A program made the position numbers and the translations under genes. Source: a bacterium (lineage in GTDB: Bacteria; Patescibacteriota; Minisyncoccia; UBA6257; WO2-44-18). Taken from it: a DNA stretch of 64,000 nucleotides. Shown in pieces: positions 29,581 to 52,517 of the stretch. Location: contig JAUSKF010000006.1 in NCBI GenBank assembly GCA_030646995.1, positions 8,624 through 72,623 of the forward strand, read 5' to 3'. The notes beneath the pieces are model-generated. The model was not told the origin of the DNA and did not search any database. It saw only the letters and a program-made list of their open reading frames with translations. Position 1 is the first letter of the stretch. Each line of letters begins with the position of its first letter.

Positions 29581-29610
29581 AGCTCCGCATTAATGCGGAG
29601 CTTTTTATTT
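29581..29610 (+). terminator. Rho-independent terminator (perfect 22-bp palindrome AGCTCCGCATTAATGCGGAGCT plus T-run)
   Basis: Seen directly, 5 nt after the sqdB-like stop. Confidence 0.7.
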
Positions 29611-34620: not shown

Positions 34621-34733
34621 ATATGGTCATTCTATAAGCGGCGTCGGTTTTAATCAATTGCTAAAACTAACTATTTTGGGTATAGTGTGCTTGGAACTTT
34701 CACATTTCATTTACACAAAAAGGAGACTCAAAG

Positions 34734-36023: not shown

Positions 36024-36033
36024 AGGAGAAAAC

Positions 36034-36999: not shown

Positions 37000-37001
37000 A
37001 T

Positions 37002-37028
37002 GAGCCCCTTGTAAGGGGCTCTTTTTTA
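37002..37028 (+). terminator. Rho-independent terminator GAGCCCCTtgtaAGGGGCTCTTTTTT
   Basis: Seen directly, 3 nt after the stop. Confidence 0.7.
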
Positions 37029-37044
37029 ACTTAATAATTAGGGA

Positions 37045-38364
37045 ATGCGAACCATCTTTTTATTCGTGGATAAGCCGACTTTCATAGGGGACCTGTTGGA
37101 CACCTCTTATCTGCCTTACCTAGCCTCCAAATATAAGGTGATAGTTTTTACTCGCAAAGTAGACCAGCGGGAGGCGGCGGCGCGCGGTTACCACCAGTCG
37201 CCAAATATTACTTATATGAAATGGCAGATCGAGAACAATCGTCTGCTGGGAGCGATGAAGTTTTTCCGATTTTCCTGCATACGGGAATTCGATTATCTGA
37301 TTACCACAAAATATATACGCAATCGCCGCGGTGAAGATGGAAATAGTTCTCTATTAAGAATTGCCTCTTGGCCCTTAGCCTGGTTGTTCACCTCAAAGTT
37401 TTTTAATTTCATTGAGCGTTTGCTGATGAGGCGTTCGGCCAAGTTTTCCGAATATTGCCGGACTTATCAGCCATCACTGGTCATCACCGCCACCCCCGGT
37501 TTGAATAATTTTGAGGCGGAAGCGGTTTGGCTCGCTAAAAAAGCCGGCCTGCCTACGGTAGCGGTCGATTGCGCTTGGGACAACCTCACTACCCGTGTTA
37601 CCCGCGTTCGTCCCACTGACTATTTTTTTGCCTGGCATGAGCCGATGCGTCAGGAGGCGATAAGGATACACGGCCTTTCTCCGGAACGAGTGCAGGTTAC
37701 CGGACCTTTGCGTTTTGATTATTACTTCACCAAGGAGCCTCAGCAGCCAACCAAGGAAGAGTTTTTGCAATCGTGCGGGCTGGATCCGAAGCTGCCGGCC
37801 ATTTTATATACCACGCAAAAATCCCATCTTTTTGAGGATGATTTTTTAAGGAATCTTATCCAGATGCGTAATGAGCAGCAGATCCCATATGCCAGCATCT
37901 TTATCAGAGTGCACCCACTGGCAAAGCCGGGCCGTTTTCAGGAATTTGAAAAGTTGAAAGATATTTTTGTTGATAGGCCGACAGAAGTTATGTCGTCTGC
38001 CGATCTACGTCATTTAAAATACTCGCTTATGTATGCCGACCTGAATATTAACTATTCCTCCACCATTTCTTTGGAGGCGATGGCTTTTGATAAGCCGGTG
38101 ATAAATTATTTCGAGCCCAGCCTGAAAAGTTTTGAGTTGAATCATTATAAGCCCTTGTTGGATATGAAAGCGTTAAAGTTGGTTTATGACACCAAAAATG
38201 AGCTGGCCAAAGCCATCCGCGATTATTTAGAAGATCCGAGTATTGATCGGGAAGCCCGCAATAAGGTTTTGAATATCTATTTCCCGTTCCGGGACGGCCT
38301 GTGTTATAAGAGGAATGTAGATTTCCTAGAGGAAATTGCAAATTATGGAAATAAGAAAGATTAA
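37045..38364 (+). CDS. TagB/TagF-like polyol-/glycosyl-phosphate transferase, paralog 2
   Basis: LVITATPGLNNFEAEAVWLAKKAGLPTVAVDCAWDNLTTR; C-terminal INYSSTISLEAMAFDKPVINYFEP. Homologous to the ORFs at 21224, 39444, 40809 and 53823. Confidence 0.5.
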   Translation: MRTIFLFVDKPTFIGDLLDTSYLPYLASKYKVIVFTRKVDQREAAARGYHQSPNITYMKWQIENNRLLGAMKFFRFSCIREFDYLITTKYIRNRRGEDGNSSLLRIASWPLAWLFTSKFFNFIERLLMRRSAKFSEYCRTYQPSLVITATPGLNNFEAEAVWLAKKAGLPTVAVDCAWDNLTTRVTRVRPTDYFFAWHEPMRQEAIRIHGLSPERVQVTGPLRFDYYFTKEPQQPTKEEFLQSCGLDPKLPAILYTTQKSHLFEDDFLRNLIQMRNEQQIPYASIFIRVHPLAKPGRFQEFEKLKDIFVDRPTEVMSSADLRHLKYSLMYADLNINYSSTISLEAMAFDKPVINYFEPSLKSFELNHYKPLLDMKALKLVYDTKNELAKAIRDYLEDPSIDREARNKVLNIYFPFRDGLCYKRNVDFLEEIANYGNKKD

Positions 38365-39439
38365 AAAATCAGAGCTTGGCAAAGTTATGGAATTCAACCG
38401 GAAGGAATATCCGGCTGGCCATATTTTGCAGAACGAAACTTACTACAATTGGCAGTTTGATAATGTTTTCAATCCGGAATCGGACAGTTATACCTCCCTC
38501 GGCCTTTTTAATGATGCGGGAGAGTTGGTCGGCACTAATGGATTATTCCCTGCCCCAATCACTTTTTTAAGCAAAAGTCTCCCGTGTATTTGGTTCGCCA
38601 ATTTGATCGTTCGTGAAGATCTACGTAGTTTGGGATATGGCTATCTTCTGATGGAGAAAAGTGTATCGATGGCGGATATGGCGGTAGACCACAATATAAA
38701 TGCTGCGGCGTGGCCTCTTTTTATTAAATCTGGCTGGCAAGGCGGAGATATTGAGCGGTATTTGGGAATTATTAATCCGGAAGGGGCCGAGAGAGTGATT
38801 GGTCAGAGTAATTTAGGGTTGAAGGTCTTGAGTTCTCTGCCGACTAATGATTCCGGTTTGAATTTTGAGTCAGTTTCCAAATTTGATTCGGAAGTGGATG
38901 CTTTGTGGGAAAGCGTCTCGCAGCGTTATCCAATTTCTATAGAGCGAAGTAGTAAATATCTCAATTGGAGATATGCCGAGCATCCGATGACGAAATATCA
39001 CATTTTTTCGGCCAACGCTGGAAACGAAATGAAAGGATTTATTGTGTTGCGCATAGATGAGATCACCGAAGGACCGGAACGAAAGCCGTCGGGAGTTAAG
39101 ATCGGCAGGATAATTGATTGGGTGGCTGACTCGAGCGCAGAAGAATTTATTTTGTTGCAGGCAATCGAGTGGTGCCGGGATCAAAAAGTGGATTTTATTG
39201 ATTATTTCACTACTGAGAATTTTCACGCCGAAAGTCTGAAGAAGTTGGGTTTCGTGAATGATAGGGAAGAGCCTTATTCTTTGATGCCAACCCTCCTGAA
39301 CCCGATCGACCGAGTTAAAAGGACGCGACATAATTTTGCCTTTAAGATTTCTAATCCTGAAAGATTAGATTCCAAGGCGCAAGATTTGGGTAATTGGTAT
39401 GCAGTTAAAGGTTGTGGCGACCAGGATCGGCCATATTAA
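38345..39439 (+). CDS. Acyltransferase of the GNAT fold, FemAB-like tandem architecture (tentative)
   Basis: About 365 aa, in two roughly 170-aa halves with GNAT-like beta-strand/helix patterns (…GYGYLLMEKSV…; …KGFIVLRIDE…). Weak call from sequence alone. Confidence 0.3.
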   Translation: MEIRKIKKSELGKVMEFNRKEYPAGHILQNETYYNWQFDNVFNPESDSYTSLGLFNDAGELVGTNGLFPAPITFLSKSLPCIWFANLIVREDLRSLGYGYLLMEKSVSMADMAVDHNINAAAWPLFIKSGWQGGDIERYLGIINPEGAERVIGQSNLGLKVLSSLPTNDSGLNFESVSKFDSEVDALWESVSQRYPISIERSSKYLNWRYAEHPMTKYHIFSANAGNEMKGFIVLRIDEITEGPERKPSGVKIGRIIDWVADSSAEEFILLQAIEWCRDQKVDFIDYFTTENFHAESLKKLGFVNDREEPYSLMPTLLNPIDRVKRTRHNFAFKISNPERLDSKAQDLGNWYAVKGCGDQDRPY

Positions 39440-39443
39440 AAAG

Positions 39444-40799
39444 ATGAAAACGATTTTTCTAACTAGTTTTAATCCGTTTATCGCGCGCAACATTCTGGCT
39501 ACGGATGTTTTGCGGATTTTGAAGGAATGCAGCGATTTGAAGATCGTAGTTTTTGTGCCAGATTATAAAATTGATTGGTTTAAGAAGAATTTTTCCGGAC
39601 TGAATGTGGTTTTTGAAGGCATTATGTCGCAAAAGATTTCCCGCACCGATGTTATTTTTACCTACCTTGCCAGCTCTCTTTTAGACAGTAAGACCTTGGC
39701 CATTCATAAGAGAGAAGAATTGGCGAAGGATCATAATTATTTTAAATTCGCAGCCTCTTGGGCGCTCAGGAAAATCATTGGCCGCGCAAAAACCTTTCGC
39801 TGGTTAGTTCGATTGCTGGATAGTAAATTTTCTTTCAGATTGGAGTTGAAAAAATATTTTGATAGTTATAAGCCAGATCTTTTGTTTGCGACTGATGTTT
39901 ATCACAATGACGATGTCCATTTTCTATTGGAGGCCCAGCGGCGCTGTGTCTCTACGATCGGAATGATCCGTTCTTGGGATAATATTACTAACAAGGGAAT
40001 TTTCCGGGCCAAGCCCGATCAGTTGATTGTGCACAATGAAACCATTCGGGATGAGGCGGTCCAATTCAATGATTTCAATTCTGAGAAAATTTTTGTTTCC
40101 GGCATCCCTCAATATGATGACTTCGTTAAAGGGCAGAGGATGGAGCGAGCGGAATTTTTCGCCAAGCTCGGGCTGGATCCAGCGAAGAAACTTATTATGT
40201 ATTCTCCGTTTGGAGGTCGTTTTTATAAATATGACGGAGAAATATTAGAAATTTTAAAGGAGTTAGGTGAGCAAGTTCTGGTGCGCATGCCCCCAAACGA
40301 CAAGACTGAATTGATAGGCTTCCAGCCAACAAAACTTTTTTATATTGATCAGTCTGGTCACAAATTCCAAAAAGATACTTTGCGTGATGTGGAATTAAAC
40401 CAGCAGGATATGCGTTGGCTCGGAGATTCCTTGTATCATACCGATGTGCTGGTCGCCTGCGGGGCAAGTATCGCTATTGATGCCGCGCTATTCAACAAGC
40501 CGTCCGTATTCATTTATTTTGATGGCTTAGAAGAAGATTTGCCGTACATGAAGAGTGCTCGCCGATGGCTAGATTTTGACCATGCGAGAAAGCTTCGGGA
40601 TCTCGGCGGATCAGTGTCGGCGATGAGTAAAAAGGAATTACTGGAATTCGTCGGGTCTTTTTTGAGGAATCCGGCCAAGGATCAAGAGAAGAGGAGGGCT
40701 CTAGCCGAAAAGCAGTGCTGGAAGTTGGACGGAAGATCGGGCCATCGGATTGCCGAATTTATTTTAGCCAGAATTGACCTTCAGCGTTTCGGAGGATAG
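39444..40799 (+). CDS. TagB/TagF-like polyol-/glycosyl-phosphate transferase, paralog 3
   Basis: MKTIFLTSFNPFIARNIL N-terminus shared with the paralogs; LVACGASIAIDAALFNKPSVFIYFDGLEEDLPY; terminal LDGRSGHRIAEFI. The start is moved to the ATG at 39444. Confidence 0.5.
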   Translation: MKTIFLTSFNPFIARNILATDVLRILKECSDLKIVVFVPDYKIDWFKKNFSGLNVVFEGIMSQKISRTDVIFTYLASSLLDSKTLAIHKREELAKDHNYFKFAASWALRKIIGRAKTFRWLVRLLDSKFSFRLELKKYFDSYKPDLLFATDVYHNDDVHFLLEAQRRCVSTIGMIRSWDNITNKGIFRAKPDQLIVHNETIRDEAVQFNDFNSEKIFVSGIPQYDDFVKGQRMERAEFFAKLGLDPAKKLIMYSPFGGRFYKYDGEILEILKELGEQVLVRMPPNDKTELIGFQPTKLFYIDQSGHKFQKDTLRDVELNQQDMRWLGDSLYHTDVLVACGASIAIDAALFNKPSVFIYFDGLEEDLPYMKSARRWLDFDHARKLRDLGGSVSAMSKKELLEFVGSFLRNPAKDQEKRRALAEKQCWKLDGRSGHRIAEFILARIDLQRFGG

Positions 40800-40808
40800 A
40801 TTGAATGA

Positions 40809-42161
40809 ATGAAGACAGTCTTTTTAGCGGTGCCGCACGCGGTATTTTCCTCGGACCTTTTACGGACAAAATATATAGAGTATTTGGCTCAGAAATATAA
40901 AGTAGTGGTTTTGAGCGAAATGTTTGATGCCGCCGAGGCTAAGGAGCGAGGATATTTCCAGTCTTCAAATGTTGCATACATAAAGCGTGATATAGAGAAT
41001 CCGCGTTTTTGGGGCCGAATGAAATTTTTGCGCGTTGCCCTAATCAATGAGTTTGATTACTTAATTTCGATCAAGCATTTTTATAAGCGCCCCAACTATG
41101 CCAATAACTGGAAGAGAAGGGTGGTTCGCATGATTGGTTTGCCGTTCAAATATTTTTTGACCGCTGATTTTTTTACAAAATGGGAATTAAAATACTGCCC
41201 CATCTCCCCCCAATTCAATTCTTTACTTTCGGAGTATAAACCGGATCTACTGATTACCGCTACGCCGGGCTTTTCTCCTCTAGAGGCGGAATTAGTTGTT
41301 TTAGCGAAGCGCTCCGGCTTGCCGTCGGTAGCGGTTAACTTTAGCTGGGATAACCTGACTATGAATTCCAAGCATATCCGCAAAACCGATTGGTTGATCG
41401 CTTGGAATGAGGTGATGCGGCAAGAAGCTATTAATATACATAAATATTCTCCTGAAAAAGTTTCTGTGTCGGGTACTTTGAGATTTGACCCATATTTTGA
41501 TGACTCCGACGCTGTGATCGGAGCAGGTAAAGAAGAGCCAACGCGGAAAACTTTTTTGGAGTCCAAGGGATTGAACCCAGAGAATAAAACCGTTTTTCAC
41601 ACTACGGTTACTAAGGCTTACCCGTTCCAGAAAAAATATATTAATGATCTGATCAAATTGAGGGATTCCAAAAAAATCCCCTACGTTAATTTCTTGATCC
41701 GAATCCATCCCTTGGATTTGATAGAGAACTATTCGGAATTCAAGAATATTCCCGATCTTTGCTTGGAAAGGTCCGGTCAAAATGTAGAAATGAGCTATAC
41801 CGACCTGCTGAACCTTAAATATTCTTTGAAATATACCGATCTGAACATCAATTATGCTTCTACGATCACCATTGAGGCCTGTATTTTCGATAAGCCGGTC
41901 ATCAACATTGGCTATTTGGATCGCTTCGCCTTGGCCTATGAGTTCAACCATTATCAACCAATTTATGAAAGTGGAGCGATAAAGTTAGCGAAGACTGACG
42001 AGGACTTACCGATCCTTATTAATCAATACTTAGAGCATCCGGAATCAGGAAGGGAGCAGCGGTTAGCAATCGTGGATAAGTATGTACAATTCACTGATGG
42101 TTTATCATATAAACGTAGCGTAGACGCGCTAAGCGCAATATTTAAATATTTAAATATTTAA
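40809..42161 (+). CDS. TagB/TagF-like polyol-/glycosyl-phosphate transferase, paralog 4
   Basis: MKTVFLAVPH…; LLITATPGFSPLEAELVVLAKRSGLPSVAVNFSWDNLT; INYASTITIEACIFDKPVINIGY. Confidence 0.5.
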   Translation: MKTVFLAVPHAVFSSDLLRTKYIEYLAQKYKVVVLSEMFDAAEAKERGYFQSSNVAYIKRDIENPRFWGRMKFLRVALINEFDYLISIKHFYKRPNYANNWKRRVVRMIGLPFKYFLTADFFTKWELKYCPISPQFNSLLSEYKPDLLITATPGFSPLEAELVVLAKRSGLPSVAVNFSWDNLTMNSKHIRKTDWLIAWNEVMRQEAINIHKYSPEKVSVSGTLRFDPYFDDSDAVIGAGKEEPTRKTFLESKGLNPENKTVFHTTVTKAYPFQKKYINDLIKLRDSKKIPYVNFLIRIHPLDLIENYSEFKNIPDLCLERSGQNVEMSYTDLLNLKYSLKYTDLNINYASTITIEACIFDKPVINIGYLDRFALAYEFNHYQPIYESGAIKLAKTDEDLPILINQYLEHPESGREQRLAIVDKYVQFTDGLSYKRSVDALSAIFKYLNI

Positions 42162-42171
42162 ACTTAAAAAT

Positions 42172-43113
42172 ATGTCTGATTTATCGAAAGATAAATATAT
42201 CATTGTTAACTACCACTACGTGGAAGATCCGCGCCCTAAGTCGGCGGGAATTTCTCCCTGTTCGATTGCTGAGTTTGATCGTCAGATCAGTTATTTGTCA
42301 AAGAATTTTAAAATAGTCAACTTGGGAGAGATTTATCAGGCCGCGGTTTCCGGTAAGGAGGGGAAGTTTTGTGCTATTACTTTCGATGATGGCCTGAAAG
42401 ACAATTATGTTAATGCTTTTCCAATCCTCCAGAAATATCAGGCAACGGCTACTTTCTTTATCATTACCTCTGTATTCGAGCATCGTCTACCCGCAGCTCA
42501 CAAGATCCATATTTTACTTTCTAGATTTACCGCTGATCAGATTATCGATCTTTTCCATACTTTCATAGGTGAGTTTTATCCAGACCTAAAAAACCAATAT
42601 ATCATTCCCAAGGACCGTCGTTTAACAGAGCGTAGGATGCATGAAGGAGTAGCAATGGCTAATTTCAAAGAAACAATGATCGCCTTGCCGGAAGATGTGC
42701 GGAGTCAGTTTTTGCGTTATGGATTTAAGATTAATAAATTGAACGAGGAAAAAATCAGTAGCCATTTATTTTTAAATCGAGAAGAAATCAAGGCTTTGCT
42801 GGATGGGGGCATGCAAATCGGTTCGCACTCCCATGGTCATTATTCTATGTCAGGAGACGATGAATCTTTTTTGCGAAAAGACGTAAAACTTTCCAAAGAA
42901 ATTTTATCAGGGATCATCGGCGCTTATCCCAAATGGTTTTCCTATCCGCATGGGCGTTCTAGCGCGGTGGCCGAACGGGTTCTGCGAGAGGAGGGTTTTG
43001 ATTTAGCGGTGACTATTCAGCGGAAAAAAATAGAGAGCACCGATAGTCCGTTGACGATCCCTCGGTATGATACGATAGATATAAAAGAGTATTTGGATGA
43101 GCAAAAGATTTAG
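42172..43113 (+). CDS. Polysaccharide deacetylase (NodB-homology / CE4), paralog B
   Basis: FCAITFDDGLKDNY, GSHSHGHY, SYPHGR; paralogous to the ORF at 25295..26191. Confidence 0.7.
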   Translation: MSDLSKDKYIIVNYHYVEDPRPKSAGISPCSIAEFDRQISYLSKNFKIVNLGEIYQAAVSGKEGKFCAITFDDGLKDNYVNAFPILQKYQATATFFIITSVFEHRLPAAHKIHILLSRFTADQIIDLFHTFIGEFYPDLKNQYIIPKDRRLTERRMHEGVAMANFKETMIALPEDVRSQFLRYGFKINKLNEEKISSHLFLNREEIKALLDGGMQIGSHSHGHYSMSGDDESFLRKDVKLSKEILSGIIGAYPKWFSYPHGRSSAVAERVLREEGFDLAVTIQRKKIESTDSPLTIPRYDTIDIKEYLDEQKI

Positions 43114-44929
43114 TTTTTTAATTCTGGGTTTGGCAGTGTTAGTTGGGGTGCTTTATCTAGCACCTCAACTCCTAATCAAGCGCGCTGTGGAAAATTCCGG
43201 TCGTACTTTCGTATTGGCTCAATTCAACCAGCTGCATGATGGGGGAGAAGTCTATTTCCAGTTTGCTCGCGAGGCCGCTGAAGGCCATATTCCGCCTGCC
43301 GATCTTTATTTTGACCAGCAGCTCCCCAATATTTATCCGCCTCTTCCACCGGTGATTTTGTCGGTATTGATCCGAATATTCGGAGACGTGACCGGGGCTT
43401 ATTTGGCCGCGTTGTTTATTTTTCCGGCGATTACCTTTCTGTTCTTCTTTTGGTTGGGCTGGATTGTTTTTGATCGCAATAAGCTTTGGTCGGTTTTTAT
43501 GGCTTTGACTGGAATTCTAACTCCTATATTTTTAGTAACCTCGCAAATATTTTTAGGCCCTTCATATTTTGCAAATATCGTATTGAAGAATTTTTATCCC
43601 GGCATCCAGACCCTGCTACCGCTTTTATTCTTCTCCCGGGTTGATCACCCCCTGATTACCAGCTTAATTTACCTTCCGGCCATCGCTTCGTTGTTGATCT
43701 TTTGGAAAAGACCGAGCGCCAAGACGGCGGTTTTAACCGGGTTTGTTTCCGGGCTGCTTTTCTACACCTACTTTCACTTCTGGGCCTATTGGGTGGTGGT
43801 GGGCGGGTTGTTGTTGGTAGCGTCACTACTCTTGTGGCGCCATGAAAAAGCTTTGATAAAAAATTTCCTTGGACTGATCGGCGTTTTTATTGTGATAAGT
43901 ATCCCATATGTAGTTAATCAGTTTCGGTTAAGTCGGTTGCCGGGGTATGACGAGTTTATTAAGCGGGTGGGGGTGGATTTTGGACACGGTGTCGGTTGGC
44001 AGTGGTGGCCATATTATTTGATTTACGCCGGAATGGCGATTTTGATTTACGCGGTTCTTTGGAAGAAAGAGAATGAAAAAAAACGAGCGGTTTTTTACTG
44101 GGTGGCGTTGTTGTCCGGAGTGGTGGCGTTGAATGTTCAGGTGATTACAGGATTCGTACCGCATCCAGATCATTGGTCTAGAGCCGTAGATCCAATCTTG
44201 GCATTGATGATATTTGAGATCATTTATCATCTAGCGAAGAGAGCTTCGGCTCGTTATCCAAATTTCAAAAAGGCGTTGCCGATAGCACTCGCTTTGCTGA
44301 TGGTTCTACTTGTGGCGAAAAAGGCGGTGAACGTGGCCGGCTTTGTGAGGCCTGACCCGGAGTCGCTGGTTCAGTACGCGATGCCGGAGGATTTGTTGGA
44401 ATCTTGGCGATGGATGGATGAAAACCTGAAAGAACCAAAGATTATTTCGCCTTCTATCATCACGACTATTTATTCCACGGCATTCAGTTCGGCGCGGCCG
44501 TTTTTGCCATCAGGTGGCGTTATCCCAATAACCAACGAAAAACTGGAAGACCTTTTTTTGATTGCCAATAAAGTTTTTGGAGTGAGTGTGGATGTAGTGG
44601 AGAAGCGATTAAGAGGGGGCGTGGGATTAGATTGTAAATATCTTTGCGATTGGAACCCTGCGCTCGTGAACATCGAGGGAGCTTCAGGGTTTCTGTACTC
44701 CTCTTATTTTAAGCACCTGACGGGCTCTAAGGCGGTACCGGAAGAAAAGATTGCCGAACTTTCTCGTAAGTATCGGAAAATTCGAGCTGATTGGGATAAC
44801 TTGGGGGCGAATTATGTCTATTATGGGCCGCTCGAGAGGCAATTTTCCACAATTGATCCAAAGAAAGATTCTCGGTTGGAATTGGTTTATAAAAATACCT
44901 CGGTAGAGATTTATAAAATTAAGCGCTAG
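43097..44929 (+). CDS. Large polytopic membrane protein, GT-C-like (ArnT/PMT-like lipid-linked-sugar transferase candidate)
   Basis: About 14 TM helices. Homologous to the C-terminal 600 aa of the GT2 fusion at 61116..63629 (HEKALIKNFLGL versus HDKALIKNFLIL; YVYYGPLERQF versus YVYYGPWEKQF). Confidence 0.5.
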   Translation: MSKRFSFLILGLAVLVGVLYLAPQLLIKRAVENSGRTFVLAQFNQLHDGGEVYFQFAREAAEGHIPPADLYFDQQLPNIYPPLPPVILSVLIRIFGDVTGAYLAALFIFPAITFLFFFWLGWIVFDRNKLWSVFMALTGILTPIFLVTSQIFLGPSYFANIVLKNFYPGIQTLLPLLFFSRVDHPLITSLIYLPAIASLLIFWKRPSAKTAVLTGFVSGLLFYTYFHFWAYWVVVGGLLLVASLLLWRHEKALIKNFLGLIGVFIVISIPYVVNQFRLSRLPGYDEFIKRVGVDFGHGVGWQWWPYYLIYAGMAILIYAVLWKKENEKKRAVFYWVALLSGVVALNVQVITGFVPHPDHWSRAVDPILALMIFEIIYHLAKRASARYPNFKKALPIALALLMVLLVAKKAVNVAGFVRPDPESLVQYAMPEDLLESWRWMDENLKEPKIISPSIITTIYSTAFSSARPFLPSGGVIPITNEKLEDLFLIANKVFGVSVDVVEKRLRGGVGLDCKYLCDWNPALVNIEGASGFLYSSYFKHLTGSKAVPEEKIAELSRKYRKIRADWDNLGANYVYYGPLERQFSTIDPKKDSRLELVYKNTSVEIYKIKR

Positions 44930-44945
44930 AAGATCTTTGCGTAGG

Positions 44946-44975
44946 TTGATTTTTTTGGGCTAAATGGTCTAGTAT
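44946..44975 (+). promoter_or_regulatory. Candidate promoter TTGATT -18- TAGTAT, ending 8 nt before the rfbF ATG (leaderless-type)
   Basis: Hexamers only; no Shine-Dalgarno sequence upstream of the ATG. Confidence 0.2.
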
Positions 44976-44982
44976 TCAGGGT

Positions 44983-45786
44983 ATGAAAGTAGTTATCTTG
45001 TGCGGCGGGAAAGGAATGCGGCTCCGCGAGGAAACCGAGCACAAACCTAAGCCATTAGTAACTATCGGCGAGATGCCGATTCTTTGGCATATTATGAAAA
45101 CCTACGCCCACTATGGGTTCAGGGATTTTGTGCTTTGCCTGGGTTATAAAGGCGAAATGATTAAGGATTATTTTCTTGGCCTTGATGAAGCGGCCAACGA
45201 TTTCACCCTGAAGCTTGGTTCCGGACCGAAAGTGATTACTCATCACAACAAGCGTGGTTTGGCGGATGACTGGAATATCACCTTCGTGAATACCGGCCTG
45301 AATTCCAATACCGGCTCCCGCCTCGCTAAAATAAAAGATTTCATTGGCAATGACGAAGAGTTTTTGTTGACCTACGGCGATGGCGTCGCGGACATTGATA
45401 TCAACGCTGCGGTGGCCTACCACAAGCAGAAGGGGAAGGTGGCTACACTTTCCGGAGTGAATTGGATTAATCCTTTTGGTGTCATTGAGCCGCAAGATGG
45501 ATTAGTGGCGGCCTTCAAAGAGAAGCCCCGCTCCAAGGCCTTCATCAACGGCGGATTTTATATATTAAACAAGAAAGTTTTTGACTACGTGAAAAAAGAC
45601 GAGGACTGCATTTTGGAAAAAGAACCGATGGAAAAATTATCGCGGGAAGGTCAGTTGGCAATCTATGAGCATCACGGATTCTGGTACTGTGTAGATACGA
45701 TGAAGCACTTAGAAGATTTGAATGTGATGTATGCCTCCGGTAATCGTCCGTGGATGGTTTGGGAAAATAAAACGACCGAAGTTTAA
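44983..45786 (+). CDS. rfbF: Glucose-1-phosphate cytidylyltransferase
   Basis: MKVVILCGGKGMRLREET..KPKPLVTIGEMPILWHIMK...FLLTYGDGVADIDI...INGGFYILN...HHGFWYCVDT closely matches RfbF/DdhA. Confidence 0.8.
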   Translation: MKVVILCGGKGMRLREETEHKPKPLVTIGEMPILWHIMKTYAHYGFRDFVLCLGYKGEMIKDYFLGLDEAANDFTLKLGSGPKVITHHNKRGLADDWNITFVNTGLNSNTGSRLAKIKDFIGNDEEFLLTYGDGVADIDINAAVAYHKQKGKVATLSGVNWINPFGVIEPQDGLVAAFKEKPRSKAFINGGFYILNKKVFDYVKKDEDCILEKEPMEKLSREGQLAIYEHHGFWYCVDTMKHLEDLNVMYASGNRPWMVWENKTTEV

Positions 45787-45803
45787 ACTTCGGTCGTTTT
45801 ATT
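45766..45803. terminator. Perfect 38-bp palindrome (AAAACGACCGAAGTTTAAACTTCGGTCGTTTT core), a bidirectional terminator shared by convergent genes whose stop codons overlap at its centre
   Basis: Seen directly. The GTTTAAAC centre supplies TAA on both strands, and both genes end with the peptide NKTTEV. Confidence 0.7.
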
Positions 45804-46847
45804 CCAGTAGAGTTTTTCGTCAATCTCCTTCTTGTCTTTCAGGTGATTGATTTGCTTAAGACGAATGAAATGCCGCTGTTCTAAGGGTTTTTCCGGTAAT
45901 CCATGTTTTTGGAAATCATCCCGTAGTTCTTCCGCCGCTTTTTTCAGGTCCCATTTAAATTTGAAATCTGGAAGTATTTTCTGCAGTTTTTGGAAAGACA
46001 CTCGATAACTGCGGGAATCTTTATCGGGCTTGTCCGATAGGGAAATTTTGGCCTTTGGGAAGACTCCTTGAACTATCTGCGCTATTTCTTTGACTTGATA
46101 GTTTTCTTTATCCTGGCCGCAATTAATCGCTTCTCCGCGCACTTTTTCTTCCGGAGTCTCCAGAAAGGCCACGAATAGCCGAGCGATATCTTCTGCGTGA
46201 ATCATCGGCCTCCACGGAGTTCCGTCGCTCAAGATTTTCACCTCGCCAGCCGAGAAGGCATTGGCGGCGAAATTATTCAGCACTATGTCTAGGCGAAGCT
46301 TGCTGGAAGAGCCATAGGCGGTGGCGTTACGGAGGATTATCGGGCAGAATTTTTCATCGGCCATTCCTTTTAATACTTTTTCAAATTCTACTTTTGATAT
46401 TGCATAAGCTGTTCGTGGGTCGGTGGGCGTTTCTTCGTCCACTGGTTTTTCTCCGCCGAGAGCTCCATAGATACTACAAGAAGAAGAGAAGAGGAATTTT
46501 TTTACGCCTGATTCTTTGGCGAGCTTGGCGAGCCGGATGGAGCCGTTGAGGTTGATGTCCATTGTGAGCTGGGAGTCTAGTGCTCCCATCGGATCGTTAG
46601 AGAGGGCGGCCAGATGGCAGATGGCATCTACGCTGGAGAGGTCGCTTTCATTGATATCCCGCACGTCTTTTTTAATGGCGGTAAAATTGGCGGTCTTTTT
46701 GAAAACGCATTCCGGGTCGTCAAAATAGCCGGCATCCACGCCGAGCACTTCGTATCCTTTTTCCTGCAATAACGGCACCAGCAGAGAGCCAATATAGCCA
46801 TTACTGCCGGTTACCAGCACCTTTTTTAGCTTATCCATATAGCGCAA
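45783..46847 (-). CDS. NAD-dependent nucleotide-sugar epimerase/dehydratase (extended SDR)
   Basis: VLVTGSNGYIGS, catalytic S…YAISK. Convergent with rfbF; 354 aa. Confidence 0.7.
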   Translation of the reverse strand: MRYMDKLKKVLVTGSNGYIGSLLVPLLQEKGYEVLGVDAGYFDDPECVFKKTANFTAIKKDVRDINESDLSSVDAICHLAALSNDPMGALDSQLTMDINLNGSIRLAKLAKESGVKKFLFSSSCSIYGALGGEKPVDEETPTDPRTAYAISKVEFEKVLKGMADEKFCPIILRNATAYGSSSKLRLDIVLNNFAANAFSAGEVKILSDGTPWRPMIHAEDIARLFVAFLETPEEKVRGEAINCGQDKENYQVKEIAQIVQGVFPKAKISLSDKPDKDSRSYRVSFQKLQKILPDFKFKWDLKKAAEELRDDFQKHGLPEKPLEQRHFIRLKQINHLKDKKEIDEKLYWNKTTEV

Positions 46848-46875
46848 TGATTATGAAACAAAAACTGGAAAATAT

Positions 46876-46900
46876 AAAGCCCCGATTTTGTCGGGGCTTT
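46876..46900 (-). terminator. Hairpin terminator AAAGCCCCGAttttgTCGGGGCTTT
   Basis: Immediately downstream (on the minus strand) of the stop of the DUF218-like gene. Confidence 0.5.
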
Positions 46901-46904
46901 GTTT

Positions 46905-47576
46905 TTACATTTCGTCGCGAATTCTAAGATATTCAAACATCTCGGGGATGGTGGCGTTTGGAGTGAAGTCGACGCCGTCCTTTTGAGCGTACTTCACGAT
47001 TCGGTCGTATTCACCCTGTACGTGGTCTACGAGCGTCCCGTCCATCGTTCCGCCACCGAGTAGCGGTTTCGCGAGCGGTTTGCTCCAATCCACTACGTGG
47101 AAAGTGCGATTGTACGCCTTCACGAAGATGCCCAACTTTTTCATCGAGGCGATGATTTGCAGGAAACAGCGGAGTTGGTGATGTGGAGCAGTAACGATTG
47201 TCACTGCTCTAAGATCTTGATCGTGCATCATCTTCAGCAAAGTTTCCGATTCGGCAGCGGTGTGATCGGCTCCTGCGATTATGCTGATGTCATCACGCCT
47301 AACTCCACAGCGCTCTAGTTCATCGGTAAATACTTCTAGGCCGGGATAGGCGAGGCCGCGCAAGCTGCAGACTAGATGCGAATGGCCGTTCAAGAAAATA
47401 TTCTTCGTCATCTTCTCTTTGTAGAACCGACCGATTGTGATTGCGGCCTCTCGGTTGTGTGCGGTGCTGGTGGTCGGGCTCCCATGCCAGAACAGACAGT
47501 CGGTTTTCTTCTCCTTGTCCATGAGGACCATCAGCACGGCCTTCATCATTTCGGCGCTTGTCGGCTCCCACTTCAC
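46905..47576 (-). CDS. DUF218 (YdcF/ElyC/SanA-like) domain protein
   Basis: AVTIVTAPHHQLR matches the DUF218 T-x-x-x-H-x-x-R signature; Rossmann-like; about 220 aa. Confidence 0.45.
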   Translation of the reverse strand: MKWEPTSAEMMKAVLMVLMDKEKKTDCLFWHGSPTTSTAHNREAAITIGRFYKEKMTKNIFLNGHSHLVCSLRGLAYPGLEVFTDELERCGVRRDDISIIAGADHTAAESETLLKMMHDQDLRAVTIVTAPHHQLRCFLQIIASMKKLGIFVKAYNRTFHVVDWSKPLAKPLLGGGTMDGTLVDHVQGEYDRIVKYAQKDGVDFTPNATIPEMFEYLRIRDEM

Positions 47577-47676
47577 GGGCCACCTCCTTTGTTGGGGTTC
47601 TGTGGGAAATAATAAATCAAAAAACCAGTAATGTCAAGGTTGAAAGAAAGCCGATTTTATCGTAAAATATCGGAGT

Positions 47677-48630
47677 ATGTTAAGTGAACCGAAAGCGGTT
47701 TTAGTGACCGGGGCGACCGGTTTTGTGGGTTCTCATTTGGTGCAGAGATTGACCAATGAGGGATATCAGACCCATATCTTATTGAGAACAAAGTCCGATC
47801 CGTGGAGGATAGCGGACATTTTGCCGAAACTGAAAGCGCATAATGTGGACCTGACTGATAGAGAAGGATTAGTAAAACTGATGGAAGAGGTGAGGCCGAA
47901 CTTTATATTCCATTTGGCAACCGCCGGGGTTTATGGAGGGAAGTCTTTACCTGATCAAGATCTTTTGAAAATAAATTTGGGCGGATTCTTAAATTTGGTG
48001 GAGGCAACTAATGATCTCGAATATTCTTTGTTCGTTAACACTGGAAGTTCAAGTGAATACGGTCCCAAAAATGAAGCGATGAAAGAGGGTGATGTGTGTC
48101 AACCTTCAAATATGTATGGGATCACCAAGTTGGCCGCCACTTTATACGGCCAGGCAGTCGCTGCGACCCACAAAAAGCCGATCGTGACTTTGCGGCTTTT
48201 CTCTCCGTTCGGCTCGCACGACGATGCCAAGCGTTTTATGGCGATTGCTGTAAGCGGGGGAATAAAAAATGAGGAATTGATCCTTAGTAACCCCACAGCT
48301 GTGCGCGACTTTATTTATATTGACGATGTGATTGATGCCTATCTACAATGTATGAGCAAAGCGGAAGCGCTTCGCGGCCAGGTGCTCAATATCGGCAGTG
48401 GCATAGAGATTGGCATTCCGTCCCTGTGCGAGAAGCTAAAAGAAATAGGCAAGTTTACCAACACTATCCGTAAGGAGCCGGGTCAGCCGAGGCTGGGAGA
48501 GTCTCCGAGTTGGCAGGCGGACATCACGAAAGCCAAAAAGTTGTTGGGGTGGCAACCCAAGCGTTCGCTGGAAGAGGGGCTGGAAAAGACTATTACTTGG
48601 TTTAGGGAGAATCTTAAATCTTATGAATAA
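47677..48630 (+). CDS. NAD-dependent nucleotide-sugar epimerase/dehydratase (extended SDR)
   Basis: VLVTGATGFVGSHLV, S…YGITK catalytic motif. First gene of the 16-kb co-directional operon. Confidence 0.7.
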   Translation: MLSEPKAVLVTGATGFVGSHLVQRLTNEGYQTHILLRTKSDPWRIADILPKLKAHNVDLTDREGLVKLMEEVRPNFIFHLATAGVYGGKSLPDQDLLKINLGGFLNLVEATNDLEYSLFVNTGSSSEYGPKNEAMKEGDVCQPSNMYGITKLAATLYGQAVAATHKKPIVTLRLFSPFGSHDDAKRFMAIAVSGGIKNEELILSNPTAVRDFIYIDDVIDAYLQCMSKAEALRGQVLNIGSGIEIGIPSLCEKLKEIGKFTNTIRKEPGQPRLGESPSWQADITKAKKLLGWQPKRSLEEGLEKTITWFRENLKSYE

Positions 48631-49573
48631 CCATCTGACACAAAAGAAAATTTCCGTAGTGATTGCCTGCTACAACGAGGAGGCAAACATCCGGACCTTA
48701 TACGACCGGCTGATTAACGTTTTTAAAGACATCACCCCTCACTACGAATTTATCTACGTTGATAACAACAGCACTGATAGTTCGCCGCAGATCTATAAAG
48801 AGCTGGCGGCGCAGGACAAATCCGTTTCCGCCATATTAATGGCCAGGAATTTCGGAACTTCCGATTCTTCTTTTTCGGCCGGTACCGAATATGCCTCCGG
48901 CGACGCCGTGATCTGGATAGACGGTGACATCCAAGATCCTCCGGAGTTGATAAAAGAATTCGTGCAGAAATGGTTGGAAGGCAATGATGTTGTTTATGGC
49001 ATCCGGGCGAAGCGCGATGCCAGCTTGGTAATGAAGCTAGGTTCTAAGTTGTTCTATCGTGTCTTTAACAAAATGTCTTATATCCATATGCCGGTGGACG
49101 CGGGAGATTTCGGCTTGATGGACCGAAAGGTGGTGGACGTCTTCAATCAGCTGCCGGAGCGCGACCGGTTCGTGCGTGGATTACGGGCTTGGGTAGGCTT
49201 TAAGCAGACCGGAATACCGTACAAGCGAGCCGACCGCCAAGCAGGAGTGAGTACGCAAAAGATTTCGCGTTATTTTTACACCTTCCGCAAAGGAATCTTC
49301 TCCTTTTCTTATTACCCACTTTCCCTGATCACTTATCTGGCTGTTTTCGCTTTCTTTATTTTGGTGGCGGCAGGAATTATTTACCCGATTTGGTCCATTA
49401 TTGATCCCGCGCCTTCCGGATTCCTGACAATCTTAATGATTGTTTTGTTTATCGGCAGTGTGCAAATGATTTCTCTGGCAATCTTGGGCGAATATCTTGG
49501 AAGAATTTTTGAAGAAGTGAAGGGTCGGCCGAAGTATGTAATTCGGGAGATTATTAACGATAAAAGAAAATAA
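48623..49573 (+). CDS. GT2 polyprenyl-phosphate glycosyltransferase (ArnC/GtrB/DPM1-like) with C-terminal TM helices
   Basis: ISVVIACYNEEANI, YVDNNSTDSS, WIDGDIQDPPE (DxD region), two C-terminal TM helices. Confidence 0.75.
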   Translation: MNNHLTQKKISVVIACYNEEANIRTLYDRLINVFKDITPHYEFIYVDNNSTDSSPQIYKELAAQDKSVSAILMARNFGTSDSSFSAGTEYASGDAVIWIDGDIQDPPELIKEFVQKWLEGNDVVYGIRAKRDASLVMKLGSKLFYRVFNKMSYIHMPVDAGDFGLMDRKVVDVFNQLPERDRFVRGLRAWVGFKQTGIPYKRADRQAGVSTQKISRYFYTFRKGIFSFSYYPLSLITYLAVFAFFILVAAGIIYPIWSIIDPAPSGFLTILMIVLFIGSVQMISLAILGEYLGRIFEEVKGRPKYVIREIINDKRK

Positions 49574-51351
49574 TGAAGTTATCCGACTATTTAATTGAAT
49601 ATCTACGCGACCAAGGGGTGAAGGATGTTTTTTTGGTAACCGGAGGAGCGGTGGCGCACATCGTGGACTCTTTTCGAAACATAAAGGGCATTGATTATGT
49701 GTGCACCCAACACGAACAGCCGGCGGCGATGGCGGCAGAGGCTTACGCGCGTGTTACCGGAAATATTGGAGTGGCGATGGCGACCAGTGGGCCGGGAGCG
49801 ACTAATTTAATTACCGGAATGTGTTGCGCTTGGTTTGATTCTATCCCGACGGTTTATATCACGGGGCAGGTCAATCGCGGAGAGTCAAAAGGAAAGAGCG
49901 GAGCGCGGCAGGTCGGTTTCCAGGAAACCGACATTGTCAGCATGGTGAAGCCAATCACTAAGTACGCAGTATTAGTGGATGATCATTTGAAAATAAAATA
50001 TTACTTAGACAAAGCTTTTTATATGGCCAAAGAAGGCCGGCCCGGACCGGTTCTGATTGATGTGCCGATGGATGTCCAGCGGCAGGAAATTGACCCAGCG
50101 AAACTCAGGGGTTTTAACGCGCCGAAAGAAAAAACTGTGGATGCGGTTTTAAAAAAGAAAATTAAATCCGCCTTGGCATTGGTTGCGAAATCCCAGCGCC
50201 CGGTAATCCTTGCGGGTGGGGGAATTAAGTTAGCTAAGGGCAATGCTGAGCTTTTGGAATTCATTAAGAAAACCGGCTTCCCGGTAGTTACCTCTTGGAG
50301 CGGATTTGACCTAGTGCCGCACAACCATAAAATGTTGGTAGGGCAATTCGGAGTTTATGGAAACCGAGGAGCTAACTTTGCCGTGCAAAATGCTGATTTG
50401 ATAATTAGCGTGGGTTCTCGTTTGGATACAAGGCAAACCGGCGGCCGTCCGGCTACTTTTGCCAGAGAGGCAAAAAAAATTGTTGTGGACATTGATCAGT
50501 CTGAGCTGGATAAGCGCCGAGGTCTGACTCCTGATGTTGAGATTTGCGCCGACGCTAAGTTATTTTTGAAAGAGATGAATCAATCTCTTAAAGATATAAA
50601 AATTCCCAAGATTGATTCATGGCTGAAAAAGGCGGCTGAATGGAAAGTGAAATATCCTACAGTTCTCCCTGAATATGAAAAGCAAAAGGGCAGCGTTAAT
50701 TCCTATGTTTTCGCTAAAACTCTTTCCGAAGAAGCCGCGGCGAATTCAATCGTCCTTCCCGATGACGGAGGCAACCTTACTTGGACAATGCAGTCTTGGC
50801 AGCTGAAAGAAGGCCAGATGCTTTTTTCGGCCTTCGGGAATTCTCCGATGGGTTATTCTTTCCCGGCGGCGATTGGCGCTTCTTATGCCGCCGACCACAA
50901 ACGTCCGGTGATTTGTATCATCGGTGACGGCAGTTTCCAGATGAATATTCACGAACTGCAAACCGTTGCTCACTATAAGATTCCAATCAAGATATTTATT
51001 TTGAATAATCACTCTTACGGAATCATCAAGCAATTCCAGGATATGTATTTTGGTGGCCGACACGAGGCTTCTTCCTCGGACAAAGGCTATAGCTGTCCGG
51101 ATTTTATTAAAGTTGCTCAAGCATACGGGCTAAAGACTGTTTCTATTAATAATCATCAGGAGTTACGGAAAAAGATTAAGGAGGTGCTGGCCTCTAAGGA
51201 GGCAGTTCTATGTGATGTGTTGTTGGATGAAGGGCAAAAGTTGATGCCGAAATTGGAATTCGGAAAATCGATTGAAGACTTGATGCCTTATTTGCCGCGC
51301 GAGGAGTTTAAGAAAAATATGATCGTGAAGCCGTTGGACGAACCAAGATAA
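49573..51351 (+). CDS. Thiamine-pyrophosphate-dependent enzyme, acetolactate-synthase-like (YerE/IlvB family)
   Basis: TPP_enzyme N/M/C architecture; TPP-binding GDGSFQMNIHELQT with NN…; about 590 aa. Confidence 0.75.
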   Translation: MKLSDYLIEYLRDQGVKDVFLVTGGAVAHIVDSFRNIKGIDYVCTQHEQPAAMAAEAYARVTGNIGVAMATSGPGATNLITGMCCAWFDSIPTVYITGQVNRGESKGKSGARQVGFQETDIVSMVKPITKYAVLVDDHLKIKYYLDKAFYMAKEGRPGPVLIDVPMDVQRQEIDPAKLRGFNAPKEKTVDAVLKKKIKSALALVAKSQRPVILAGGGIKLAKGNAELLEFIKKTGFPVVTSWSGFDLVPHNHKMLVGQFGVYGNRGANFAVQNADLIISVGSRLDTRQTGGRPATFAREAKKIVVDIDQSELDKRRGLTPDVEICADAKLFLKEMNQSLKDIKIPKIDSWLKKAAEWKVKYPTVLPEYEKQKGSVNSYVFAKTLSEEAAANSIVLPDDGGNLTWTMQSWQLKEGQMLFSAFGNSPMGYSFPAAIGASYAADHKRPVICIIGDGSFQMNIHELQTVAHYKIPIKIFILNNHSYGIIKQFQDMYFGGRHEASSSDKGYSCPDFIKVAQAYGLKTVSINNHQELRKKIKEVLASKEAVLCDVLLDEGQKLMPKLEFGKSIEDLMPYLPREEFKKNMIVKPLDEPR

Positions 51352-52517
51352 TGGAGCATCAATTTTCTAAAGACGCAAAAAATTTAGTTGGCAGCCCGAT
51401 GTTCAAAATGATGGCGCGGGTGCAGGAGCTGGAAAAGTCCGGCAAGAAGATCATCCATTTTGAAATAGGCGATCCCGATTTTTCCACGCCTCAGCGTATT
51501 ACCGATGCGGCAATCGATGCTTTGAAGGCCGGAGAAACTCACTATGTGAATTCTTCCGGTATGGCCCAGCTACGCGATGCTATCTGCGATTCCACCGAAA
51601 AAGATCTGGGTTGGAGGCCGGAGCGTGAGCAGGTCGTCGTTGCCCCAGCGATTTCTTTTATTTATTTTACCGTCCGGGCGTTGGTTAATCCCGGTGAAGA
51701 AGTGATTGTAGCAGAGCCGGGCTATTCTTCATATTTTTCTACTTTTGACTTCATCGGCGTAAAGGCCGTCACCGTTCCGGTATTTGAAAAGAATAATTTT
51801 CGGCTAGCGGCGGCCGATCTGGAAAAAGCGATTACTCCAAAAACTCGGTTGGTAATTCTCACTTCTCCTAGTAATCCGACCGGGGCGATGATGACCAAGG
51901 AGAATTTGACGGCCATCTACAAGCTGGCGGAGAAGCATAATTTTTATATCTTGAGCGACGAGGTTTATAAAAAAATGACTTACGACTTGCCCTTTAGCTC
52001 CATTTCGGCCAACGACCGTTGCCAGGAACGGGTGATTATTTTGGATGGATTTTCAAAGGCTTATGCAATGACTGGCTGGCGTCTGGGTTATTCTATTGCT
52101 CCGAAGCCAATCGCTGAAAAATTAGGATTAATGATTCAGACGGTCATTTCCAATGTGCCCCCATTTATTCAATTGGCAGGCGTTGAGGCCCTTTCCGGAG
52201 ATCAGAGCAGTATAAAAGTGATGATGGATGAGTATCGAAAGAGAAAGGATGTGATGATTAAAGGATTTAATGAATTGCCTGGAGTTTCCTGCATAGATCC
52301 CGATGGAGCTTTTTATGCATTTCCGAATATTCAGAAAACCGGAATGACCAGCAAAGAATTTGCGGAATTTATTTTAGAAAAGGCCAACGTTGCGCTGTTG
52401 CCCGGCACTGATTTTGGGCCGCACGGCGAGGGATATTTACGTGTTACCTTTGCCACCTCTTTGTCTAATATTGAAGAAGGGCTTCGCCGGATGAAAGAAG
52501 CGCTGTCAAAAAAATAA
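51351..52517 (+). CDS. PLP-dependent aminotransferase, class I/II (AspB-like)
   Basis: IHFEIGDPDF, SPSNPTG, PLP-Lys SKAYAMTGWRLGY. Confidence 0.7.
   Translation: MEHQFSKDAKNLVGSPMFKMMARVQELEKSGKKIIHFEIGDPDFSTPQRITDAAIDALKAGETHYVNSSGMAQLRDAICDSTEKDLGWRPEREQVVVAPAISFIYFTVRALVNPGEEVIVAEPGYSSYFSTFDFIGVKAVTVPVFEKNNFRLAAADLEKAITPKTRLVILTSPSNPTGAMMTKENLTAIYKLAEKHNFYILSDEVYKKMTYDLPFSSISANDRCQERVIILDGFSKAYAMTGWRLGYSIAPKPIAEKLGLMIQTVISNVPPFIQLAGVEALSGDQSSIKVMMDEYRKRKDVMIKGFNELPGVSCIDPDGAFYAFPNIQKTGMTSKEFAEFILEKANVALLPGTDFGPHGEGYLRVTFATSLSNIEEGLRRMKEALSKK

Follow-up and report, generated by a model that had tools for sequence, protein, structure and literature searches.

Two convergent genes end inside one perfect palindrome that is most likely a bidirectional transcription terminator

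In the 64-kb stretch of the metagenome-assembled contig JAUSKF010000006.1 (169,423 bp) analysed here (the window), an rfbF-like gene on the + strand and an SDR-family gene on the − strand converge and end inside the same perfect palindrome of 38 bp, located at positions 45766–45803. The host is probably an uncultured member of a candidate-phyla-radiation lineage. We consider it likely that the palindrome is a bidirectional terminator which serves both convergent units, and that the six-residue tails which it adds to the two proteins are passengers. Judging by its sequence, the element is most likely an unusually placed case of a known class, the bidirectional intrinsic (Rho-independent) terminators.

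The palindrome and the ends of the two genes

The junction of the two genes comprises the following features.

44983–45786, + strand: RfbF-like glucose-1-phosphate cytidylyltransferase gene, 267 amino acids; residues 262–267, NKTTEV, come from the left half of the palindrome
45760–45762, + strand: TGG, codon of W260, the last family-conserved RfbF residue (PWxVW), as placed by the end of TIGR02623 and the C-termini of homologues
45766–45803, both strands: perfect palindrome of 38 bp, read as the whole bidirectional terminator including the A- and T-tracts
45783–46847, − strand: SDR-family NAD-dependent epimerase/dehydratase gene, 354 amino acids; the last six residues, NKTTEV, come from the right half of the palindrome
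45804–45806, − strand: TGG (CCA on the + strand), codon of the last family-conserved SDR tryptophan (...LYW); abuts the palindrome

The sequence AATAAAACGACCGAAGTTTAAACTTCGGTCGTTTTATT (45766–45803) is identical to its own reverse complement. It consists of two 19-nt arms with the centre between 45784 and 45785, and its symmetry breaks at 45765/45804. It is the longest zero-loop palindrome of the 64-kb window, the runner-up having arms of 11 nt. The chance expectation for arms of at least 19 nt in 64 kb at the base composition of the window is 2.4e-7, and in 30 shuffles of the window the palindrome arms reached 10 nt at most. The initial annotation of this DNA, made from the letters alone, had reported the 38-bp perfect palindrome, which is confirmed here; the 32-nt string quoted there is its inner part.

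The + open reading frame (ORF) 44983–45786 ends with the codons TGG GAA AAT AAA ACG ACC GAA GTT TAA, and the − ORF 45783–46847 with TGG AAT AAA ACG ACC GAA GTT TAA. As had been stated in the initial annotation, both convergent ORFs stop in the central TTAA and both have the C-terminus NKTTEV. Neither of them contains an in-frame stop before the palindrome. The palindrome together with one GAA codon fills exactly the gap between the terminal tryptophan codons at 45760–45762 and 45804–45806.

The two ORFs overlap by the 4 bp TTAA. These positions, 45783–45786, are all that the RfbF and SDR frames share; they hold part of either stop codon plus a single base of the terminal valine codon of each ORF. 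The left arm codes for the RfbF tail alone and the right arm for the SDR tail alone. Describing the palindrome as dual-coding, as had been done at first, is a misnomer: the term refers to a substantial stretch coding for two proteins, and here TTAA alone is read twice. The shared NKTTEV, which had been presented as a finding in its own right, follows from the palindromic symmetry, because the palindrome is read in one register from either side. The claim of genome compaction is fair in so far as no untranslated DNA separates the two genes, and is overstated in its dual-coding part.

The predicted hairpin and its terminator features

The palindrome divides into a core hairpin and two flanking tracts.

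45766–45772: AATAAAA, A-tract of the + RNA; its complement TTTTATT is the U-tract of the − (SDR) transcript; invariant in five lineages
45773–45782: CGACCGAAGT, 5′ arm of the core stem on the + strand
45783–45786: TTAA loop; the + stop TAA is at 45784–45786 and the − stop TAA is the complement of 45783–45785
45787–45796: ACTTCGGTCG, 3′ arm of the core stem on the + strand
45797–45803: TTTTATT, U-tract of the + (RfbF) transcript; invariant in five lineages

The core stem of 10 bp is GC-rich and, with its 4-nt loop, has a calculated folding energy of −14.9 kcal/mol, which is the same on both strands (ViennaRNA). The full element folds at −25.8 kcal/mol on the + strand and −25.3 kcal/mol on the − strand (z = −6.3 and −7.5). 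No shuffled sequence folds as stably as the palindrome on either strand. The tails 3′ of the stem are TTTTATTCC on the + strand (6/8 T) and TTTTATTTTCC on the − strand (7/8 T); the U-tract of the − strand continues as TTTTATTTTCCC, with T at seven of the first eight bases. An A-tract, a hairpin and a T-tract in succession are the accepted mark of bidirectional terminators (PMC1852404; PMC12207403; PMC4824070). The palindrome lies where two convergent transcription units end, as judged from the gene orientation. The usual site of a terminator is 3′ of the stop codon; here both stop codons lie within the loop.

A search of Rfam at a permissive E-value yielded no match at the gathering threshold, the best score being 35.3 bits against 77 (HrrF). 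The sub-threshold matches are small RNA models, all of which end at the hairpin on both strands. These matches appear to represent the terminator modules of the models.

The hairpin can be compared with those at other gene ends of the window, for which a heuristic map gives 55 genes covering ~97% of the sequence. Strong hairpins (folding energy of −14 kcal/mol or lower) are found at about ten other gene ends, mostly with T-tails, and start −2 to +21 nt from the stop codon. The core energy of the focal hairpin lies within the span of the other window terminators (−11 to −22 kcal/mol), and the hairpin follows the standard terminator design of this genome. It is the sole strong hairpin of the window with stop codons in its loop. 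A textbook bidirectional terminator at 1459–1485 (GGAAGCCCCGC-AGTAC-GCGGGGCTTTT, opposite strand AAATAAAAAA) occupies the 45-nt spacer of the convergent genes 995–1456 (+) and 1502–2092 (−). This is the normal counterpart of the focal hairpin, being of the same design but intergenic. The terminator at gene 23341–24498 overlaps its own stop codon by 2 nt. The convergent pairs 12827–13621/13611–14738 and 32646–33674/33634–34620 overlap by 11 and 41 nt, respectively, and have no hairpin.

Conservation and covariation of the hairpin

A hairpin with the same position and the same outer boundaries is present in five independent lineages of a close clade, in which the SDR proteins are 82–100% identical. 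The stems and loops are as follows (stem / loop / stem; L numbers denote contigs).

Window: CGACCGAAGT / TTAA / ACTTCGGTCG
L011 (= L003): TATCCGAGGT / CTAG / ACCTCGGATA
L001 + L064: TAACAGAGGC / CTAG / GCCTCTGTTA
L002: TAACCGAGG / CTTAAT / CCTCGGTTA
L004: TATCCGAG / GTTTAAAA / CTCGGATA

L011 and L003 are identical across the 890 nt compared and were counted as one lineage, and L001 and L064 are two contigs of one sample that were merged over a 22-nt overlap. L011, the one further clade member obtained from scans of genome and metagenome contigs with an SDR alignment, is the nearest species representative in the genome collection. Its SDR is 89% identical, and it is labelled uncultured Candidatus Saccharibacteria; the more distant matches come from Patescibacteria.

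Three of the five lineages have perfect 38-bp palindromes with differing stem sequences. The centre sequences vary among the lineages (GTTTAAAC, GGCCTAGGCC, GGTCTAGACC, GGCTTAATCC) and pairing is retained. In the five lineages 97.6% of the cells are paired, in comparison with 39–51% in controls in which the partners were slid by 1–3 columns. Changes on both sides occurred at 6 of the 17 pairs, i.e. at 6 of the 10 core-stem pairs, and neither one-sided changes nor G-U pairs were found among the 17 pairs in the five lineages. The lack of G-U pairs is expected if both strands pair, because a G-U pair on one strand is a C-A mismatch on the other. The A-tract and T-tract are invariant at 14/14 positions. 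A stem that is variable yet always paired, flanked by invariant tracts, is the pattern predicted for a two-way terminator, and at the sequence level it indicates selection on the structure and not on the encoded peptide. Of the two features whose retention in orthologues was to be checked according to the initial annotation, the palindromic hairpin is thus kept in five lineages, and the NKTTEV tail is changed to NKITEA and NKISEV.

The perfect dyad symmetry, which includes the centre, could also be that of a DNA-level element, such as the binding site of a dimeric protein, a restriction-type or recombination site, or a copy of a repetitive extragenic palindromic (REP) element, a miniature inverted-repeat transposable element or a paired uptake sequence. 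The palindrome centre GTTTAAAC is a known 8-bp restriction site. However, with up to 3 mismatches allowed the palindrome matches only itself in the 64-kb window, and its stem and centre differ between the lineages while pairing is retained. We regard a DNA-level element as highly improbable, and a sequence-specific DNA site or repeat element was rejected on these grounds.

The hairpin is absent from distant relatives which keep the gene pair (L005–L010, L021–L025 and L060; SDR 61–66% and RfbF 70–79% identical), which implies that it was acquired by the close clade. The junctions in these relatives are diverse: the two genes overlap by CTAG in L010 and by ~33 nt in L060, and are separated by a 16-nt spacer in L008. 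In one lineage (L005–L007 and L021), a gene for a 168-aa NUDIX-like protein lies as an insertion between the SDR gene, whose stop it overlaps by 4 bp, and the RfbF gene, with whose 3′ end it shares ~40 nt. A survey covered 376 kb of fetched DNA and looked for pairs of convergent ORFs, each ≥100 codons long, with both stop codons in a single hairpin whose stem measures ≥8 bp; it returned the focal locus and its orthologues only.

Six of the public contigs examined broke or folded back at the palindrome. L001, L003 and L064 end within it (at 2358, 5101 and 3829, respectively), and in L061–L063 the right flank (last 39–47 nt) is the reverse complement of the left flank. The right side of the latter three being a fold-back of the left, they were excluded from the covariation count. 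Such behavior raises the question whether the window sequence itself is an artefact, produced either by a mis-join at the palindrome or by a homopolymer error (A4 for A5) that created the read-in of RfbF. One extra A would indeed give the end ...VWEK followed by a stop, which is exactly the state of L061. However, the convergent order of the SDR and RfbF genes is syntenic in the independent assemblies L002, L004, L008, L010 and L011, the RfbF frame of L004 enters the loop independently, and a run of four A is short for a homopolymer error. A mis-join was rejected because of the synteny, and a homopolymer error at the A4 run is unlikely. Taken as a whole, an artefact is very unlikely.

The C-terminal tails of the two proteins

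The RfbF-like protein matches TIGR02623 positions 1–255 of 255 with its residues 1–260 at 292 bits (curated cutoff 300.25), the profile match stopping at W260. It also matches PDB 1tzf (E = 2.7e-71), the Salmonella enzyme, whose C-terminus is ...PWKTWE and whose final residue is aligned to E261 of the window RfbF. The proteins at the locus are listed by NCBI as MDO8467190.1 and MDO8467191.1; the former is identical to the RfbF protein and is named glucose-1-phosphate cytidylyltransferase. In 95 of 120 RfbF homologues, 0–3 residues follow the last tryptophan. The SDR protein matches PF01370 (Epimerase) with residues 10–244 (2.5e-48), and none of the equivalog profiles matched it at its cutoff. 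A TTG start gives 354 aa, in contrast to 351 aa in the NCBI annotation, which starts from the Met at position 4. The SDR homologues end with ...LYW plus 1–3 residues, with exactly one residue past the tryptophan in 66 of 120. Judged by these comparisons, both NKTTEV tails are extensions past the normal C-termini of their families (RfbF ...VWE and SDR ...LYW).

The SDR frame enters the loop and stops there in 5/5 lineages, with the stops TAA, TAG, TAA, TAG and TAA. The tail of the clade SDR proteins is NKTTEV once, NKITEA twice and NKISEV twice. Its identity to the window tail is 4/6, in comparison with 85–90% over the remaining protein. The conserved N and K of the tail are encoded by the invariant A-tract, AAT AAA. 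The RfbF frame enters the loop in two of six lineages, ending with VWE-NKTTEV in the window and with VWEKNSTSNKISEF in L004. It stops at or upstream of the A-tract in the other four, with the following last residues before the stop.

L061–L063: VWEK
L011: VWEKK
L064: VWDRNNKA
L002: VWEKK, 14 nt upstream of the A-tract

The A-tract AATAAAA holds a TAA in one frame. The window sequence TGGGAAAAT and the L061 sequence TGGGAAAAAT differ by one base (A4, at 45764–45767, and A5, respectively), which puts the TAA of the A-tract out of frame and lets the window RfbF skip that stop. The two-sided read-in is, as far as the sequences tell, an accident, specific to the lineage, that is superimposed on a conserved structure. 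The initial annotation had allowed that one of the ORFs might be over-extended, with the true C-terminus upstream. RfbF does end upstream in the four lineages mentioned, and the window ORF lacks an earlier stop. The RfbF tail is truly encoded by the window sequence and does not result from an over-extended annotation.

The identical tails of two enzymes in the same pathway could have a function, such as that of a common tag for sorting, degradation or interaction that the palindrome exists to supply; N, K and E are also retained in the SDR tails of the clade. However, the identity is forced by the symmetry, N and K are the A-tract AAT AAA, and the tail residues change whenever the stem changes. 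The tails are moreover absent from both families outside the clade and from RfbF in 4/6 lineages within it. Functional tails were rejected as symmetry-forced, lineage-variable and absent outside the clade, and we consider their probability close to negligible. Because the NKTTEV tails extend past the family C-termini and change among relatives while pairing is kept, they are best described as passengers, and they are presumably inert.

Proposed mechanism of termination

We propose that the palindrome acts as a terminator in the following way. The RNA of either transcript would fold into the 10-bp GC-rich stem with the 4-nt loop, and UUUUAUU would come next, the A-tract of each strand serving as the U-tract of the other. 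Translation would proceed through six codons within one arm and end at the loop TAA, which TTAA offers to both strands by its palindromy. The identical NKTTEV tails would be a by-product of symmetry without a function of their own. The 3′ end of the + RNA is predicted at ~45803–45805 and that of the − RNA at ~45764–45766, i.e. 17–19 nt beyond the stop codon for either transcript, from a spacing of 7–9 nt after the stem in vitro (quoted in PMC12207403). The next in-frame stop past the loop follows after 7 codons in RfbF (at 45808) and after 36 codons in SDR, both beyond the predicted RNA end. The loop stop is probably retained because an mRNA lacking it would end without a stop codon. A distance of 17–19 nt 3′ of the A site should fill the mRNA channel of the ribosome, and normal release rather than rescue is expected.

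Several points weigh against the terminator interpretation. The bidirectional terminator of the initial annotation stands with respect to its anatomy and its covariation in five lineages, and that transcription ends at the palindrome we infer from the sequence alone. The covariation sample is small, consisting of five lineages that are mutually related. A consensus terminator scan of the window omitted this hairpin, because the stem was extended into the A- and T-tracts and no T-tail was then seen. Between the loops TTAA and CTAG there are two changes that mirror each other, for which RNA pairing cannot account. Should translation be tightly coupled to transcription in this organism, no position of the stop codon would be less favorable than the loop.

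The loop is palindromic in three lineages (window 45783–45786, L011 895–898 and L001 ~2346–2349). The mirrored change in it may hint at template switching from arm to arm, or it may be due to chance, as both changes are silent for SDR. Template switching (quasipalindrome correction) could be what mainly keeps the palindrome, with the hairpin acting at most as a stabiliser of the mRNA 3′ end. Every change is mirrored in Watson-Crick fashion without G-U intermediates, and in the terminator evolution of Bacillus cereus G-U is the commonest intermediate (PMC5381666). The mirror also reaches into the loop (TTAA/CTAG), though RfbF in L011 and L001 + L064 needs no stop there. On the other hand, the absence of G-U is equally expected if both strands fold, and the invariance of the A/T tracts beside a varying stem is a terminator pattern. 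The centres of L002 and L004 are imperfect, so that homogenisation would be incomplete, and the design matches the other terminators of the genome. We regard template switching as the main cause as quite unlikely; it is compatible with terminator function and, given the invariant U-tracts, may complement it rather than replace it.

The position of the stop codons bears on how transcription is coupled to translation. In Escherichia coli, a ribosome at a stop codon 5 bp from a terminator cuts its efficiency from ~90% to <10%, and full efficiency requires >27 nt from the stop codon (PMC4824070). A terminator with the stop in its loop would be workable only if the first ribosome usually trails RNA polymerase. 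Such a lag has been argued for Bacillus subtilis from the short distances that separate stop codons from terminators (PMC12207403), and the short stop distances at the other window terminators suggest that the ribosome may lag here too.

Alternatively, the terminator could be gated by translation: a ribosome on the last six codons or at the loop stop would melt or block the hairpin, and the translation of each gene would set termination and hence antisense read-through into its partner, coupling two enzymes of a sugar pathway. The strong repression of termination by E. coli ribosomes at stops a few bases from a terminator (PMC4824070) agrees with this, as do the loop stop in every SDR orthologue of the clade and the fact that both genes encode sugar-nucleotide enzymes of one cluster. 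However, the symmetric arrangement is not conserved, with RfbF entering the loop in two of six lineages, and the other terminators at −2 to +21 nt from stop codons suggest a general tolerance of nearby stops. Gating by translation is unlikely in our view, and the corresponding idea that the stop-in-loop arrangement is a translation-sensed two-way terminator, giving minimal reciprocal control of two sugar-nucleotide enzymes in a compact genome, is quite improbable.

Comparison with known elements

The bidirectional terminator that we favor shares with known bidirectional intrinsic terminators a GC-rich stem-loop with complementary A/T tracts between convergent 3′ ends. Stems of such terminators show compensatory evolution and are under tighter constraint than those of one-way terminators (PMC1852404, PMC12207403, PMC5381666). 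Unlike them, the focal element is not intergenic: both of its arms are translated and both stops lie in the loop. The predicted distance of 17–19 nt from the stop codon to the RNA 3′ end compares with Term-seq medians of 37–91 nt in the surveyed bacteria. Terminators that reach back into the 3′ end of the preceding coding sequence are also known, and the focal hairpin likewise starts before the stop codon, but its overlap comprises the whole 5′ arm and occurs on both strands at once. As in tail-to-tail gene overlaps of 4 bp (TTAA or CTAG), the focal ORFs overlap by exactly TTAA, whereas here TTAA is the loop of a strong hairpin and is reached by a six-codon extension of each ORF.

In E. coli, overlapping 3′ ends of convergent genes are set by hairpin pause elements with the assistance of collision, according to the account of Ju et al. 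2019 given in bioRxiv 10.1101/2022.10.23.513370. The focal site has in common with the elements described there a hairpin-encoding element between convergent genes. In that account the collision-assisted elements are described as unlike intrinsic terminators, whereas the focal element has canonical U-tracts on both strands. REP elements and the paired uptake sequences of Neisseria are palindromic hairpins at convergent junctions that can terminate transcription (PMC1852404). In contrast to them, the focal palindrome occurs once in the window, and its sequence varies from lineage to lineage.

Two-way terminators, terminators overlapping gene ends and convergent overlaps of 4 bp are all known, and the site merges the three in an extreme geometry. 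No report of both convergent stop codons in one terminator loop was found among the open-access papers searched. The site is most likely a curiosity of genome packing and not a new mechanism.

Neighbouring genes and further hairpins

The RfbF-like gene closes a long series of + strand genes. The locus is surrounded by a large cluster for glycan or cell-envelope biosynthesis (~33600–52500 and 7098–7943), which contains genes for three SDR epimerases/dehydratases, two NTP-transferases and GT4 glycosyltransferases. It also encodes a multi-pass membrane protein of 610 aa (43097–44929) and a protein of 223 aa (46905–47576), neither of which has a Pfam match; the gene of the former adjoins rfbF in the relatives L004, L005 and L008. 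On the − strand, a terminator-like hairpin at 46874–46902 (AAAGCCCCGA-CAAAA-TCGGGGCTTT) lies 4 nt past the stop of the 223-aa gene and overlaps a promoter-like site (46878–46850) just 5′ of the SDR start. With this hairpin and the promoter-like site upstream of its start, the SDR gene appears to be transcribed on its own, as a unit between two hairpins.

The second-longest palindrome of the window, an AT-only tandem and palindromic stretch with 11-nt arms (AATATTTAAATATTTAAATATT, 42137–42162), lies at the boundary of the genes 40809–42161 and 42172–43113. Another terminator with a TTAA loop is found at 29581–29602, 4 nt past the stop of gene 28422–29576; it is a 22-bp perfect palindrome, AGCTCCGCA-TTAA-TGCGGAGCT, followed by TTTTATTTC. 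The + ORF 995–1456, next to the intergenic bidirectional terminator at 1459–1485, has a strongly acidic, His-rich tail of low complexity (...GGGEGGDDDDHGHGHDDEHGGHGHDDDHPD before the stop).

The hairpin ACTAAAAGACACA-TTCT-TGCGTCTTTTAGT at 7053–7082 has the same design of A-tract, stem and T-tract (−15.2 kcal/mol on the − strand). It is located 15 nt past the stop of the − strand NTP-transferase gene 7098–7943 and inside the + ORF 6426–7136, which is convergent with this gene and encodes 236 aa without a Pfam match and with a hydrophobic C-terminus. If ORF 6426–7136 is real, the hairpin would be a terminator embedded in the coding sequence of its partner, truncating the partner mRNA.

Significance

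Perfect palindromes longer than the k-mer of an assembler break or fold contigs, so that metagenome assemblies are likely to contain too few sites like the one described here. For annotation, the site is a caution against reading such C-terminal extensions as functional motifs. It offers a clean natural case in which selection for a hairpin overrides protein sequence, and in which two protein tails are forced into mirror-image evolution. If the terminator works with the stop codons in its loop, RNA polymerase would usually have to run well ahead of the first ribosome in this lineage, as it does in Bacillus.

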